The position numbers were made by a program, and so were the translations under genes. Below the pieces are notes generated by a model. The model searched no databases, was not told the DNA's origin, and saw nothing but the letters and a program-made list of their open reading frames with translations. Positions 57,001 to 61,705 of a stretch of DNA of 64,000 nt are shown in pieces (positions within the stretch are counted from its first letter, which is position 1; each line of letters starts with the position of its first letter). The stretch comes from Escherichia phage vB_EcoP-CHD5UKE1. The DNA is taken from sequence record NC_070989.1; one strand, given 5' to 3'.

Positions 57001-58104
57001 TTACAGCGCTTGCTCTAACTGATTTTCCAGATGGTCTGGAATGTACCCTGTGATATTGCTATCACTGTGACCAGACTCACGTAGTAAGTCAAAAATAGCA
57101 CGAATACGTTGTTCTGGAGCGTGTCTTACTTGAGATAGGTCTGCTGTACGAAGCATAACCAAAATCTCTTGATACAAGTTGTTAGCGTTCCCTCGAACAT
57201 ATCCAAGGAATCCATAGAAGTCTGACATAAGACGTAAGTCAACAAGAACCTCTCCGTTGGAGTTAGTTCGACGTAAACGAATACGACCAGACTGTTCTAC
57301 TTCATGAGAACGGCAATACAAAACATCACGGGCCATACAATACCCTGAATGCAAATCAGATTCATCCAGATTGTAATCCAGAGGAAGGTAAGGAAGCATT
57401 GGGGCAAATCGTACAGTATTTAAGTGCTCAATAAACTGATCATTGCTCATATCTGCGTTATCTAAAGCCAGCTTCTTCAACATCAAGAAGCGGTTAACCA
57501 GATTGAGAAGTTGACCACGTTTCCACTTAGGCTCACTGATACGGAACTCAATTGAACCGTATTGGGCAAGTGGCAGAAGGTTCAGAGATGTATATTTATC
57601 CCATGAACGAACCAGACGGTTGAAGAATTCTTCACCATCGTAGTTAAATGCGTCAGAGGCATTCATTACCTGTGCTTGTACCACTGCAAACGCAGGGCAG
57701 AAATTGCTACGATAACGATGGTAGCCTGAACACTTGAACAGCATCTTTTCATAGAAGGTCCAAGCAAGGATGGTCTTCTTGAGGATATTACTATCAGCAT
57801 CCCTCATATCCATATGAACGTGAGTAGAGCAACGCCAAGTCCCCTCGGCGTGCGATTCAGCTACTGCTTCACTCAGGTTGTTGATAGCGTCTAACAACTC
57901 CTGTCCGTTGTAAGGTCGTGAACATACCATTTCACAACCGTTACGCAGGGAACCATCCTCTGTGCAATCCCACATATCTGCTTCGATATGTTCAGAACCT
58001 TCGAGTTCAAGCTCAATACCGACACCGCACTGAAGTGCAATTGAACTATGCGCCTCAGTTAAACGACCTTCTCGATATCCAAAAGTTTGCGCTACAGTTG
58101 TCAT
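57001..58104 (-). CDS. glutamine-synthetase-like amidoligase (GCS2/Amidoligase_2-type carboxylate-amine ligase) (367 aa)
   Basis: N-terminal GVGIELELEG and STHVHMD blocks resembling the YbdK/GCS2 GxExE and HVH motifs. Confidence 0.55.
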   Translation of the reverse strand: MTTVAQTFGYREGRLTEAHSSIALQCGVGIELELEGSEHIEADMWDCTEDGSLRNGCEMVCSRPYNGQELLDAINNLSEAVAESHAEGTWRCSTHVHMDMRDADSNILKKTILAWTFYEKMLFKCSGYHRYRSNFCPAFAVVQAQVMNASDAFNYDGEEFFNRLVRSWDKYTSLNLLPLAQYGSIEFRISEPKWKRGQLLNLVNRFLMLKKLALDNADMSNDQFIEHLNTVRFAPMLPYLPLDYNLDESDLHSGYCMARDVLYCRSHEVEQSGRIRLRRTNSNGEVLVDLRLMSDFYGFLGYVRGNANNLYQEILVMLRTADLSQVRHAPEQRIRAIFDLLRESGHSDSNITGYIPDHLENQLEQAL

Positions 58105-58718
58105 AACGAATCCACCAACGTAATATTATAATTGCTAAGGTTTTCAGAAATGTGATGAAAGTGTTCCAGAAGTCGCATCGGTTGCTGACCGTAAGAGTCA
58201 CGAGGTGCTTCCAGATCTACTTGTCCTACCAGTGCACCTTTATAATGCACTTTACCATCTGTAGGATTGATGTAAATATAACGAGTAACCAATCCATCAA
58301 ATTCAGGATTGAACAGACTGTAAACCATTTCACCAGAGATAGAACGACCAATCCCCGGAGCGTTTCGAATCTTGTTACCCATCAAACCCTTCGCTCTCTG
58401 ACGAACAGGGTTGATATGAGTCCAGCTTACAGTGTTGCCGTTATGGAACAGATAACCAACATCAGGTGATTCAAGAATCAAGGTTGGGTCGAACACTGGA
58501 ATATTCATCGTAGTGTTTCGGAGATTCCCATGCTCATTCTTGTACCACTGCTCTACAACAAAGTACAGAGCCTGTTCTGCTTCGTGTGAGAAGTCATCGC
58601 TGCGGAAGTTACCGCTCTGCTCAACACCAATCACAAAACACGGAAGGTTGATATTGCCTGCTCGTTTAGCAATCCATGTACCATTATAGTAATGAGAAAA
58701 ATCAGCTACTAAGCTCAC
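58101..58718 (-). CDS. hypothetical protein (205 aa) within the ligase cassette
   Basis: ORF translationally coupled to flanking ligase genes. Confidence 0.45.
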   Translation of the reverse strand: MSLVADFSHYYNGTWIAKRAGNINLPCFVIGVEQSGNFRSDDFSHEAEQALYFVVEQWYKNEHGNLRNTTMNIPVFDPTLILESPDVGYLFHNGNTVSWTHINPVRQRAKGLMGNKIRNAPGIGRSISGEMVYSLFNPEFDGLVTRYIYINPTDGKVHYKGALVGQVDLEAPRDSYGQQPMRLLEHFHHISENLSNYNITLVDSL

Positions 58719-58727
58719 GATAACCTC

Positions 58728-59534: not shown

Positions 59535-60498
59535 TGTAATACTCCACTAGTTCAGAAAAGAGAGATGAGATTGTGTTACCAACTTCTTCAAGAGTAAGAC
59601 CGGAATCTGCTCCAGTTCTTTGAATCAGTCGGGCTGTAAAGTTTTGTACTGTAATGTTTCCCAACTTGTCGTCTATTGCTTCACGTTTGTGACCATAACA
59701 GTTGGACCAGAGTCTTAACCACTCTGACATTGTTTCATACTCGTCCGGGTCTTGATCTTTAGCACGAGCAAATCTTCGTAAGGCATCTTGGTTATGGTTA
59801 CGAACATAACCATTCTCGTTGTCGCCAACACCGAAGGGGTTTTGAACCCATACTTGCTTCGTGTATTCATCAGAGTCTACAACCAAAGGAAGGAATGCTG
59901 CTGCTGACATATTGTTGTTAATAACAATAGAGGTGCTCTCACTACTCCCATTGGCTCTTCCTCGTTGAGACCATCCACCGAAGAAGTCACGACCCAACCC
60001 AGCTAACACTAGAGCGATGCCGATGCGTTTACGCTTCAGCCACTCTTCCCTGTCTTCAATTCCTTCTGCTAGGAAATCCATTCCACGATATTGCCCTTCC
60101 AGAATACTACGAAAGAGCATAAGTCCTGTGAAGATCTGATCTGCTGGATGCTCACGAAGGTTGACAGCAACACTATTCGCTGAAGTGATCGTAAATACGT
60201 CACGATAGCAAGACATGGAGTTCATAATGTCTGCTGTTTCAACCAAGTTCTTTTCAATATCAGATGCAACATGACCGTGAAAAGAGTGAGTCCAGTAATT
60301 CAACATCTCCAGTTGCAAGTTGATATCACGGTTGAAGCGACGATAACGCCCTTCTTCCGAGATAACTTCACCATTAATGTCATTTACACACTGGCCTTGC
60401 ATGTAGTTGTGGATACCGAAGCACCCACGACCTAAGAACTTCTGTTCCCCTAAATCCTGTTGAAGATTAAGAGGTACGATCGTTGTGGAGATTGACAT
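59527..60498 (-). CDS. hypothetical protein (323 aa) within the ligase cassette
   Basis: ORF; no recognisable motif. Confidence 0.45.
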   Translation of the reverse strand: MSISTTIVPLNLQQDLGEQKFLGRGCFGIHNYMQGQCVNDINGEVISEEGRYRRFNRDINLQLEMLNYWTHSFHGHVASDIEKNLVETADIMNSMSCYRDVFTITSANSVAVNLREHPADQIFTGLMLFRSILEGQYRGMDFLAEGIEDREEWLKRKRIGIALVLAGLGRDFFGGWSQRGRANGSSESTSIVINNNMSAAAFLPLVVDSDEYTKQVWVQNPFGVGDNENGYVRNHNQDALRRFARAKDQDPDEYETMSEWLRLWSNCYGHKREAIDDKLGNITVQNFTARLIQRTGADSGLTLEEVGNTISSLFSELVEYYND

Positions 60499-60508
60499 AA
60501 CTAACCTT

Positions 60509-61705
60509 TTATTTTCCTAAAAATAATCCGCTCATAATACCATCCCACTCAGAGGACGGAATCACTGAATACTCCGAACTTTGGTCCAGAGTTCCGCTAC
60601 TGAATCGCTGAACAATATTATAAATATTGAACATATCTTTAGTCTCAGCGCGATAAGCGTAGACTAATCTGTCAGCTGTTCTTTCATCTTTAGATACCCG
60701 ACGAGCAAAGGTAACCAGAAGATTGTCACCTTTGAGTATTTCTGACTCATCTTTTACTAGATCAGGGTGCATAACCGGCAAGAACATTGAGTTGTTCACT
60801 CGTAACTCTGCTGTTTCATCATTCTCATAATGAATCCATTTAAAATCTTCATCACGAAAGTGACCGCATCCATCTCTGTATGACTGTTGACGCCAAGGCA
60901 CTTGAAATGCTTCAGCGTATTTATCAGCCATGCCAACCGTAAATAGTGACGCTGGGAAAATACAAGCATCCCAATCGTTACCAACCAGAGTTGCTTTCGT
61001 TTCGCCCAAGAGGTTAGTGTAAGTGCTAACCATTCGTGAGTAAACATAAGCCTGAAGGATTGTCCAGCCTTCAACCAACCATTTATGGAGGAAGGTTTCA
61101 ACTTGACTCTCTTCATCTTCACAATAGAAGGTTCGGTCTAACATCAAATAGAACAGACAACGATCAGCAGGGATATTCTCAGTTGCTACCCCCATAAAAC
61201 CTTTATCGTGCCAGCGTAAACAGGAGGGACGATCTTTGTCCACAAATGCTTCCATAGCTTCCAGTACAGCACGAGGTGTGGTTCGGTGTTCAGGGTTTTT
61301 GTCGTTCCAACGTTCGATGTTATTTTTAGGAGGTGTGTCTTCATCTTCATATGAACACCAACTCAAAGCTTCAGCTACGTGCTTTTCATCACGCCAACGT
61401 CTAAAGCCTAACATCTTCATATGAGTTCCAGAGTTCCAGATATGCTTAATACTGCTCATATCCATCTCTCGACTTAATAAGAACTCTTCCCCATCAGCAC
61501 TACGAACGTTAGCATCTTCATGCCACACTCGAACGTGCATGTTCCATCCATGAGTTGCCTCATACATGTTAGGGTCGAAGTAGTCATCATCTTCGTCGTC
61601 TTCATCAACGCCACCATTATAGTTGCGAAGCTGAAGGAACCCATAACAAGGAGGGTTGACCGTTAAAACATTACCTTCAGTATCTTCTAATGTTACTGGA
61701 AACAT
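60509..61705 (-). CDS. hypothetical acidic protein (398 aa) within the ligase cassette
   Basis: ORF; no recognisable motif. Confidence 0.45.
   Translation of the reverse strand: MFPVTLEDTEGNVLTVNPPCYGFLQLRNYNGGVDEDDEDDDYFDPNMYEATHGWNMHVRVWHEDANVRSADGEEFLLSREMDMSSIKHIWNSGTHMKMLGFRRWRDEKHVAEALSWCSYEDEDTPPKNNIERWNDKNPEHRTTPRAVLEAMEAFVDKDRPSCLRWHDKGFMGVATENIPADRCLFYLMLDRTFYCEDEESQVETFLHKWLVEGWTILQAYVYSRMVSTYTNLLGETKATLVGNDWDACIFPASLFTVGMADKYAEAFQVPWRQQSYRDGCGHFRDEDFKWIHYENDETAELRVNNSMFLPVMHPDLVKDESEILKGDNLLVTFARRVSKDERTADRLVYAYRAETKDMFNIYNIVQRFSSGTLDQSSEYSVIPSSEWDGIMSGLFLGK

Follow-up and report, generated by a model that had tools for sequence, protein, structure and literature searches.

The 64,000-nucleotide stretch of Escherichia phage vB_EcoP-CHD5UKE1 analysed here (NC_070989.1, referred to as the window) carries an amidoligase cassette of the phiEco32 type, with genes for an Amidoligase_2 protein, a COOH-NH2 ligase, a class II (Ntn) glutamine amidotransferase (Ntn-GATase), an ATP-grasp ligase and a gamma-glutamyl cyclotransferase (GGACT) all present. 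We propose tentatively, and with slightly less than even confidence, that three further ORFs of this region, named gp85, gp87 and gp88 after their phiEco32 counterparts, encode dedicated non-ligase components of this early-expressed, amide-bond-forming cassette, and a possible way of working is put forward for them below. Two of the proteins, gp87 and gp88, are paralogues, that is, duplicates within one new phage-only family (the X family), and sequence comparison places gp85 in an orphan family distinct from it. The genes concerned are the following:

61717..62079, minus strand: gp89-like small basic protein, 120 aa, pI 9.9 (ORF; PHROG 11370)
60509..61705, minus strand: gp88-like protein (X1), 398 aa, 46.5 kDa, pI 4.7 (phage-only X family)
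59527..60498, minus strand: gp87-like protein (X2), 323 aa, 36.7 kDa (gp88 paralogue)
58728..59534, minus strand: gp86, COOH-NH2 ligase type 2, 268 aa (Pfam PF14395, E 2.3e-8; PHROG 3815)
58101..58718, minus strand: gp85-like protein, 205 aa, 23.3 kDa, GTG start (PHROG 4877, E 9e-78)
57001..58104, minus strand: gp84, Amidoligase_2, 367 aa (Pfam PF12224, E 4.5e-8; PHROG 7469)
54891..56921, minus strand: gp83, class II (Ntn) glutamine amidotransferase, 676 aa (PHROG 4736, E 6e-144; RefSeq annotation of phi32_83)
54655..54888, minus strand: gp82-like small protein, DUF7195, 77 aa (Pfam PF23825, E 4.7e-17)
54450..54674, minus strand: gp81-like small protein, 74 aa (ORF; no family assigned)
53254..54447, minus strand: gp80, ATP-grasp amidoligase, RimK/Ddl-like, 397 aa (PHROG 2599, E 1.3e-187)
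52133..52552, minus strand: gp77, gamma-glutamyl cyclotransferase, AIG2/GGACT-like, 139 aa (Pfam PF06094, E 3.9e-17)

The window derives from a phiEco32-like coliphage (Kuravirus) with 98.8% identity to Bas91 and 97% DNA identity to phiEco32. The three ORFs correspond to phi32_85, phi32_87 and phi32_88 of the latter (94-99% identity), which are annotated merely as hypothetical in all records examined. Homologues of all three are found in approximately 90 Kuravirus genomes, and diverged homologues of each, down to 33-55% identity, retain the full length and the conserved motifs. Mass spectrometry of phage SU10 detected several cassette products as well as a 23.3 kDa hypothetical early protein, the mass of which is matched by SU10_087, the 205-aa homologue of gp85. 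Given these conserved homologues and the fitting mass, the three ORFs are genuine genes and not chance ORFs, and all three are present on the minus strand at the positions first assigned to them. The cassette is located in the early-gene region.

The original prediction described the three ORFs as closely coupled to the ligase genes, and this is borne out by junctions that overlap or nearly abut. The gp85 stop and the amidoligase start share the sequence ATGA, and the gp87 stop overlaps the COOH-NH2 ligase start by 8 nt; gp86 and gp85 are separated by 9 nt, with GAGG preceding the gp85 GTG start, and gp88 and gp87 by 10 nt, with AAGG preceding the gp87 ATG. The lack of an assignable motif, also part of that prediction, was confirmed, as gp85, gp87 and gp88 gave no significant match in Pfam, NCBIfam, PADLOC or PDB sequences in either single-sequence or profile searches, and PHROGs places them solely in families without assigned function. 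Nor did any of the three prove to be a clear homologue of housekeeping phage proteins, the result that would have spoken against that prediction.

The partner enzymes are better defined. Both the PF12224 match of gp84, a glutamine-synthetase (GS)-like COOH-NH2 ligase, and the PF14395 match of gp86, which belongs to the glutamine-synthetase/GCS2-like fold class, lie above the gathering score. The Pfam GATase_6/7 matches of gp83 fall under it; this protein starts at an ATT codon (56921), giving (M)CGIVLAGG with the catalytic Cys adjoining the initiator Met, and the resulting 676-aa reading replaces the 563-aa TTG-start ORF of the mechanical ORF list. Its C-terminal half is long and Cys-rich. The matches of gp80 to RimK and Dala_Dala_lig_C are weak and sub-threshold, and an ATP-grasp ligase is found in every complete locus compared. 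As for the small proteins, DUF7195 (gp82) comes next after the amidotransferase wherever this position could be examined in C3-type phage loci, six in all, with homologues in loci L002, L004, L005, L008, L009 and L010, and gp81 has a homologue in L002 only. In L002 and the remaining C3-type phage loci, the position of gp89 is held by a small ORF of some 107-135 aa; gp89, which PHROGs places in a family without assigned function, opens the tightly packed block, and its membership in the cassette is uncertain. A 13.9 kDa protein was detected by mass spectrometry of SU10.

The three genes are inherited in a fixed block with the two GS-fold COOH-NH2 ligases, the Ntn amidotransferase, the ATP-grasp ligase and the gamma-glutamyl cyclotransferase. 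The order (small protein, X1, X2, ligase, gp85, amidoligase, Ntn-glutamine amidotransferase, DUF7195, ATP-grasp, gamma-glutamyl cyclotransferase) is seen again in phages of Salmonella, Vibrio, Aeromonas, Proteus, Cronobacter and Pseudomonas, including Salmonella 7-11, Vibrio Vp_R1 and Pseudomonas Clew-1 and UFV-P2, and also in a relative from the Logan metagenome; rearranged versions are present in Zobellviridae-type phages. The COOH-NH2 ligase that marks the cassette was found in 305 phage records, and replication and nucleotide-metabolism genes adjoin the cassette in nearly all loci examined. It could be argued that the three genes are unrelated host-takeover ORFans sitting by chance among the ligase genes, given that the early region is rich in small ORFans and that gp87 and gp88 evolve at about the rate typical of host-takeover genes. 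We consider this very unlikely, as the order persists, and its junctions often overlap, in phage groups whose ligases share just 30-50% identity, whereas the surrounding ORFans show no comparable conservation of order.

The gp85 family is strongly conserved, with 64 representative clusters among 1.8 billion proteins. In each of the 13 distinct loci its profile recovered a single ORF, of approximately 170-230 aa, which lies directly after the COOH-NH2 ligase and, wherever an amidoligase is annotated, before it; the gp85/amidoligase junction overlaps in eight of nine annotated loci.

For gp87 and gp88, paralogy is established by alignment of their profiles (hhalign, 97.6% probability, E 2.8e-12), and an iterative HMM search from the X family recruits positional counterparts only. 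Foldseek likewise relates the gp88 model to X1 as well as X2 proteins from GAP52 and from Proteus and Aeromonas phages with a probability of at least 0.99. Three motifs occur in the same order in both proteins: an N-terminal C[FY]G (PPC20YGFL in gp88, GC26FGIHN in gp87), then [HP]AD[KRQ]..LM..R (P179ADRCLFYLMLDR191 and H117PADQIFTGLMLFR130), then W.Q...G[HY].R (W271RQ..GH282FR284DED and W217VQ..GY231VR233NHN). C20 and R191 (gp88 numbering) are invariant in 24 of 24 X-family sequences, with few other invariant residues. An X-family gene immediately precedes that of the COOH-NH2 ligase type 2 in this phage and in L002, L004, L005, L008, L009, L010 and L011; the evidence is at the motif level only in Clew-1 and ZRK32, and no such upstream gene was found in K4 and Phriendly. 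A search of the Zobellviridae-type cassettes returned no clear gp87/gp88 homologue, which suggests that the X family may be dispensable for the chemistry.

These two proteins are the fastest-evolving members of the cassette. Where the ligases retain 40-64% identity, gp87 and gp88 drop to 31-33% and then become undetectable, and even between members of a single genus the matches of the X proteins reach no more than E 1e-3 to 1e-7, compared with 1e-112 for the ligase. Such rapid evolution fits a role in target recognition without proving it, and could equally be read as weak constraint. The models of gp87 and gp88 show no recognisable fold, and neither fold nor sequence searches revealed any similarity to a transferase or nucleic-acid enzyme. 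The invariant Cys sits at the N-terminal end of a helix; a papain- or transglutaminase-like Cys acyltransferase or peptidase was considered for that reason and rejected, as the models show no such fold and no Cys-His(-Asp) triad was found.

A different role for these proteins would be that one or more of them is itself the substrate or scaffold carrying a peptide-like product or tag, as in Pup, S6/RimK and peptide-scaffold pathways. Glutamylating ATP-grasp enzymes act on acidic, D/E-rich segments, and gp88 contains an acidic D/E-rich loop (residues 33-47) that is conserved in X1 proteins; GGACT enzymes cleave gamma-glutamyl-amine (isopeptide-type) bonds. The scarcity of invariant residues in the X family and the N-terminal MSL of gp85, invariant in the aligned Kuravirus-type homologues, would also be in keeping with a substrate. 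MSL is nevertheless changed in Clew-1, C-termini are not conserved, X proteins of 270-400 aa that are predicted to be folded do not resemble known tags or scaffolds, and the small cassette proteins have no Pup-like C-terminal GGQ/GGE, so that we regard a substrate role as improbable.

Since gp87 and gp88 are paralogues, gp85 keeps its place in every locus, the gene order recurs and the X proteins evolve rapidly, the three proteins are best taken as dedicated subunits of the cassette, probably acting in specificity or acyl transfer. The chemistry of their partners, the GS-fold, ATP-grasp, Ntn-GATase and GGACT enzymes, is established. In the working that we propose, the two ligases and the ATP-grasp enzyme would use ATP to activate carboxylates, which they would then join to amines; the amidotransferase would supply ammonia for converting an activated carboxylate to an amide, and the cyclotransferase would remove or recycle a gamma-glutamyl group. 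We infer from gene order that the proteins may associate physically. It can be speculated that gp85, at a fixed ratio with the amidoligase, would be a subunit of the ligase pair that bridges the two enzymes or presents the substrate, and that the gp87/gp88 pair would bind the acceptor or hand over an acyl group to it via the conserved Cys, thereby determining which host-specific or phage-specific target is modified. A search of the literature found no biochemical or genetic data on any cassette gene.

As to the target, it had been suggested that one of the three proteins is the substrate-recognising transferase, such as a DNA base-modifying enzyme. The proposed partnership with the ligases is supported by gene order and by the position of gp85, but neither a transferase nor a DNA-base substrate finds a link in fold or sequence. 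A cassette that decorates a base with an adduct derived from an amino acid, with gp87/gp88 or gp85 as the novel enzyme recognising DNA or a nucleotide, would explain the restriction resistance reported for Gordonclarkvirinae. Avoidance of sites fails to explain this resistance, because the window contains 12 EcoRI, 35 EcoRV, 9 EcoKI and 104 EcoP1 sites, approximately as expected. The replication and nucleotide-metabolism neighbours of the cassette are also in keeping with such an adduct, and contigs from viral metagenomes combine amidoligase and amidotransferase genes with genes of thymidine hypermodification (PMC8989533). On the other hand, CCWGG is strongly avoided (3 sites against about 80 expected), as are GATC, PstI and SacI, which suggests that these sites are open to restriction in the phage DNA. 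DNA of the Bruynoghevirus Delta is cut normally by BamHI, and the sequenced members of the PaP3/LUZ24 group, to which Delta belongs, carry the cassette. Among the ORFs scanned, which cover part of the genome, ThyX (PF02511) is the only thymidylate-synthase-type gene, and no dUMP/dCMP hydroxymethylase, 5-HMUDK, aGPT-Pplase, DpdA or TET/JBP was found; the three ORFs themselves, searched against Pfam up to E 0.1, match neither aGPT-Pplase, 5-HMUDK or DpdA nor any other family. The BASEL authors favour a dCTP deaminase and a nucleotidyltransferase as the basis of the resistance. A DNA adduct is judged unlikely, and we regard a protein or small-molecule amine as the more likely target.

The cell envelope has also been proposed as target, by Iyer et al. 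(2009) as relayed in PMC10580990. Peptidoglycan or its precursors would then be altered so as to block superinfection, with the three proteins as accessories. The weak match of gp80 to Dala_Dala_lig_C agrees with this, D-Ala-D-Ala being made by ATP-grasp ligases, and peptidoglycan stems contain gamma-linked D-Glu that is amidated in some bacteria. No Pfam match suggests an envelope function, however, and a Mur-ligase or transpeptidase-like partner is absent, which makes an envelope target quite unlikely in our judgement.

None of the papers and annotations examined states that gp87 and gp88 are paralogues, that they have no known fold or that gp85 keeps a fixed position. New here are the paralogy, the placing of gp85 and its assignment to a second orphan family, the recurring gene order and the rapid evolution of the X proteins. 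The cassette is more than a set of ligases with ORFans, as it includes two further conserved families, one of them duplicated and without a detectable fold relative. Its carriers include Kuravirus and Pseudomonas Bruynoghevirus phages under consideration for therapy, and gp85, gp87 and gp88 are defined targets for knock-out, pull-down and structural work in Bas91, a tractable phage that infects K-12. A bolder view, which we hold to be unlikely, is that of a new pathway of covalent modification, directed at phage DNA or nucleotides or else tagging host proteins in the manner of pupylation, in which gp87/gp88 would be a new-fold, Cys-dependent, target-selecting transferase and gp85 an obligatory ligase cofactor. 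Its DNA version, if true, would provide the missing explanation of restriction resistance in Gordonclarkvirinae.

Among known systems, thymidine hypermodification likewise involves early or middle gene clusters adjoining replication genes, and some metagenomic clusters include an amidoligase and an amidotransferase (Lee et al., 2021, PMC8989533). It differs in its route, which runs through 5-hmdU, 5-HMUDK and then aGPT-Pplase, whereas ThyX is present here and neither the hydroxymethylase nor 5-HMUDK was found in the ORFs scanned. Butirosin biosynthesis uses an ATP-grasp ligase (BtrJ), a gamma-glutamyl cyclotransferase (BtrG) and a Cys acyltransferase (BtrH) in a gamma-glutamyl protecting-group logic. 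The pairing of an ATP-grasp ligase with an AIG2-type cyclotransferase is shared with the phage cassette, and by analogy the invariant Cys of gp87/gp88 could in principle serve in acyl transfer as in BtrH. The cassette nonetheless has no evident acyl carrier protein, decarboxylase or monooxygenase, and the gp87/gp88 models have no papain- or transglutaminase-like fold, so that the likeness is one of logic and not of homology. In pupylation, PafA and Dop are GS-fold carboxylate-amine ligases that work with the Pup tag. Here, no Pfam match to the Pup-ligase family was found, and no small protein that ends in GGQ or GGE as Pup does; the gp82/DUF7195 homologues end in KGIK[VP] or in variable tails, and gp81 ends in LKLKGI. 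Pupylation and the cassette share two paralogous GS-fold ligases and the chemistry of the gamma-glutamyl-amine bond, and both include a bond-cleaving enzyme, GGACT here and Dop there. The phiEco32-type amidoligase cassette itself was reportedly described, with a predicted function, by Iyer, Abhiman, Burroughs and Aravind in 2009, in Mol Biosyst 5:1636. Its core genes, represented by PF12224 (Amidoligase_2) and PF14395 ('Phage phiEco32-like COOH.NH2 ligase-type 2'), are the same as those present here.

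The three ORFs interleaved with the ligase genes were found where the original prediction had placed them, on the minus strand, and their tight coupling to the ligase genes was likewise borne out by overlaps or gaps of 9-11 nt at the junctions. The block contains the following features, in order of transcription:

60509-61705, minus strand: gp88-like ORF (position X1)
59527-60498, minus strand: gp87-like ORF (position X2)
58728-59534, minus strand: COOH-NH2 ligase type 2 (COOH-NH2_lig, gp86)
58101-58718, minus strand: gp85-like ORF
57001-58104, minus strand: Amidoligase_2 (gp84)
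54891-56921, minus strand: class II (Ntn) glutamine amidotransferase (gp83)
54655-54888, minus strand: gp82, DUF7195 (E 4.7e-17)

Further neighbours are an ATP-grasp enzyme (gp80) and a GGACT-type gamma-glutamyl cyclotransferase (gp77). The gp85 gene and the amidoligase gene share an ATGA overlap and the gp87 gene overlaps that of the COOH-NH2 ligase by 8 nt, while the remaining junctions are gaps of 9-11 nt, all of which contain a purine-rich stretch resembling a Shine-Dalgarno sequence. Over 52000-62100 the DNA shares 98.8% identity with Escherichia phage LorandFenyves_Bas91 and 97% with phiEco32, both prolate podophages that belong to Kuravirus, a genus in the subfamily Gordonclarkvirinae. 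Genes for the three ORFs have been in the databases since 2008; the homologues are phi32_85 (205 aa), phi32_87 (323 aa) and phi32_88 (398 aa), annotated as "hypothetical protein" in all records examined. Given that gp85, gp87 and gp88 have full-length homologues in which motifs stay sharply conserved at identities as low as 33-55%, the three ORFs are genes under selection. The block lies within the early-gene region according to the SU10 paper, which reports detection by mass spectrometry of the ATP-grasp enzyme, the amidotransferase, the cyclotransferase and two hypothetical proteins of 23.3 and 13.9 kDa. Their masses fit SU10_087, the gp85 homologue (the paper's gene number is off by one against GenBank), and SU10_091, the gp89 homologue, respectively. 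A terminator-like hairpin with a T-run is located at 62261-62278 (minus strand), in the gap of 380 nt that precedes the gp90-gp89-gp88 block, so that the cassette may start its own transcription unit inside the early region.

Comparison of related phage loci reveals a recurring gene order: a small protein, X1, X2, COOH-NH2 ligase, gp85, Amidoligase_2, Ntn-amidotransferase, one or two small proteins (DUF7195 in C3-type phages), ATP-grasp enzyme and GGACT. In some loci the GGACT gene is separated from that of the ATP-grasp enzyme by a few genes, and it was not seen in all of the stretches examined. This order is kept in Kuravirus, Salmonella phage 7-11, Vibrio phage Vp_R1, Cronobacter phage A24, Aeromonas phages APT65 and LAh_8, Proteus phage J3S and the Pseudomonas LUZ24-like phages Clew-1 and UFV-P2, and is rearranged in K4, Phriendly and one metagenomic podovirus. 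The marker COOH-NH2 ligase was found in 305 phage records, and the phiEco32-type cassette is a widespread phage pathway. With regard to its partner genes, the amidotransferase begins with (M)CGIV from an ATT start at 56921-56919, which is preceded immediately by an in-frame TAG and, 8 nt away, by GGTGG; the mechanical ORF list had it as a shortened product of 563 aa from a TTG start, without the catalytic Cys. A frameshifted or truncated enzyme is ruled out by this intact gene, the C-terminal half of which carries several Cys clusters of the CxxC...CxxC type. The DUF7195 protein gp82 follows the amidotransferase in all six examinable C3-type phage loci, and its homologues share a core, VRKVPMT..G.D.LR.I, which looks like a strand-helix motif, many of them also having a KGIK[VP] end. 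We rejected gp82 as a Pup-like or ubiquitin-like tag, as the only UBL match was a sub-threshold one in a single homologue and a C-terminal Gly-Gly, Glu or Gln is not conserved.

The surroundings of the cassette vary among relatives. Upstream DNA in four of the related loci (L002 1-8512; L009, APT65, 1-4067; L004 1-754; L008 862-1437) encodes tellurite-resistance-type proteins (TerD, TerC, vWA-TerF-like) together with nicotinamide phosphoribosyltransferase, PRPP synthetase and a NUDIX protein, and the corresponding position of the window is without these genes. Elsewhere in the window, a Macro-domain protein (34174-34695, minus strand; E 3e-10) and a SLOG-family protein (YAcAr, 33118-33510, minus strand, just under the gathering score) adjoin the gene for the phage sigma factor; Macro domains are ADP-ribose binders, and the SLOG family is linked to nucleotides.

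The original prediction had found no assignable motif in the three proteins, and this held in database searches. Nothing significant was returned for gp85, gp87 or gp88 by Pfam, NCBIfam or PADLOC, PHROGs matches were to families of unknown function only, and neither single-sequence queries nor profiles (A1-A5) gave a significant match among PDB sequences, the best one, mevalonate diphosphate decarboxylase (E 0.022), not being trusted. In a Foldseek comparison with predicted viral structures, the gp88 model matched only uncharacterised proteins of 266-322 aa (probability 0.99-1.0) from Proteus, Cronobacter (two GAP52 proteins) and Aeromonas phages. The absence of a known fold for the gp87/gp88-like proteins, hereafter the X family, refers to the PDB.

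Sequence profiles resolve the three proteins into two families. The gp85 profile detects exactly one ORF per locus in 13 of 13 distinct loci, always immediately after the COOH-NH2 ligase, including an unannotated ORF of a spring-water podovirus and Zobellviridae-type versions, and its gene overlaps the amidoligase start in eight of the nine annotated loci. When 1.8 billion representative proteins were scanned in full with HMMER, only 64 clusters were returned, almost all of about 170-230 aa with the match beginning at residue 1, and no member has a Pfam match. No relation to the X family was detected, and gp85 is a second, separate orphan family. Three metagenomic homologues (P0060, P0061 and P0062; 302-322 aa) carry a Pro/Arg/Glu-rich C-terminal extension of 110-130 aa that is probably disordered.

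The other two proteins are paralogues. Both gp87 and gp88 contain, in the same order, an N-terminal C[FY]G, [HP]-A-D-[KRQ]-x3-4-L-M-x2-R and W-x-Q ... G-[HY]-x-R-[DN], and the same motifs occur in one to three ORFs of 265-360 aa at the X position in other phage genera. An iterative HMM search seeded with gp87 against the 910 ORFs from all loci first brought in the ORFs that adjoin the COOH-NH2 ligase on its upstream side, followed by the next ORFs upstream and finally gp88, without any unrelated ORF entering. When narrow alignments of gp88 and gp87 were compared, hhalign gave no significant match (E 0.47); with independent widened alignments, one per positional group, X1 and X2 matched at 97.6% probability (E 2.8e-12, 219 columns), pairing C20 with C26, the PAD motifs, R191 with R130 and the W-x-Q/G-[HY]-x-R motifs. 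Across 24 members only this Cys (C20/C26) and Arg (R191/R130) are invariant. Two ORFs of about 310 aa with a CFG motif occupy the X position in Pseudomonas phage Clew-1 and in the ZRK32 phage; their homology lacks statistical support, and no clear member was found in Zobellviridae-type cassettes. Aeromonas phages APT65 (L009 2300-3097, 265 aa) and LAh_8 (L011 1782-2636, 284 aa) encode a third paralogue, which lies upstream of the X1-X2 pair at a distance of a few genes. Residues 33-47 of gp88 (61567-61609, minus strand) form an acidic D/E-rich loop, VDEDDEDDDYFDP, of low model confidence, and X1-type paralogues elsewhere have a loop in this position, directly after the CFG motif, that is likewise acidic and contains Trp, such as EQWDEDNEQWDDEEDEY in phage 7-11.

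The components of the cassette evolve at very different rates. From near to far relatives, identity falls from 62% to 40% for the COOH-NH2 ligase, from 64% to 33% for the amidoligase and from 54% to 27% for gp85, whereas gp87 and gp88 show 31-33% and beyond that escape BLAST altogether. Even in the single LUZ24 genus, E-values are 1e-3 to 1e-7 for matches between X proteins, against 1e-112 for the ligase. The X proteins are thus faster than the ligases, a sharp contrast inside a single cassette.

Comparative genomics gives good support to a functional link between the three proteins and the ligases, as had been proposed. It was further suggested that one of them could be a DNA base-modifying transferase; we consider it unlikely that the cassette modifies phage DNA. 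According to the BASEL study, Gordonclarkvirinae withstand restriction-modification systems remarkably well although no modification pathway is known in them, and sites for EcoRI (12), EcoRV (35), EcoKI (9) and EcoP1 (104) are about as frequent in the window as expected, so that avoidance does not explain this resistance; HindIII (33 sites) is also at or near expectation. Some viral contigs, moreover, carry amidoligase and amidotransferase genes alongside thymidine-hypermodification genes (PMC8989533). However, hydroxymethylase, 5-HMUDK, aGPT-Pplase, DpdA and TET/JBP were not found among the ORFs scanned, ThyX is present, and the window strongly avoids CCWGG (3 against about 80 expected), GATC (130 against 240-296 over 1-64000), PstI and SacI sites, as does unmodified coliphage DNA; in 1-64000 there is no site at all for PstI, SacI, BamHI, NcoI and several further 6-bp palindromes. 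BamHI also cuts the DNA of Bruynoghevirus Delta, a phage of the PaP3/LUZ24 group, in which the sequenced members have the cassette, and the BASEL authors suspect instead the dCTP deaminase and the nucleotidyltransferase. Just downstream of the cassette and the replication genes of the window lie:

48209-49570, minus strand: CCA-adding/poly(A)-polymerase-type nucleotidyltransferase (weak Pfam match)
47666-48199, minus strand: dCTP deaminase
44896-45552, minus strand: ThyX

In Vibrio phage Phriendly a tRNA nucleotidyltransferase and ThyX likewise follow the cassette.

Our literature search found no experiment or other functional work on the cassette; a 2009 proposal, relayed by a later paper (PMC10580990), is cell-wall modification that blocks superinfection. 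On the basis of family assignments and established enzymology, the two GS-fold ligases and the ATP-grasp enzyme would join carboxylates to amines at the expense of ATP, the amidotransferase would supply glutamine-derived ammonia for amidation, and GGACT would cleave gamma-glutamyl-amine bonds. We infer that gp85 may be a fixed-ratio partner of the ligase pair and that the fast-evolving, duplicated X proteins may bind or load the acceptor through their invariant Cys and Arg, thereby conferring target specificity. The present analysis adds that two orphan families, defined here, are fixed components of the cassette, that gp87 and gp88 are paralogues, that fold relatives are absent from the PDB and that X proteins and ligases contrast in evolutionary rate.

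The system itself is not new, since the locus is the phiEco32-type amidoligase cassette from which the Pfam PF14395 name derives. It differs from the thymidine hypermodification pathways, the defining enzymes of which are absent among the ORFs scanned in the cassette phage. Although the phage cassette has no Pup-like tag, it resembles pupylation in its paired GS-fold ligases and gamma-glutamyl-amine chemistry, and although it lacks a carrier protein and a papain-like acyltransferase fold, its pairing of an ATP-grasp enzyme with a cyclotransferase recalls the gamma-glutamyl protecting-group logic of butirosin.
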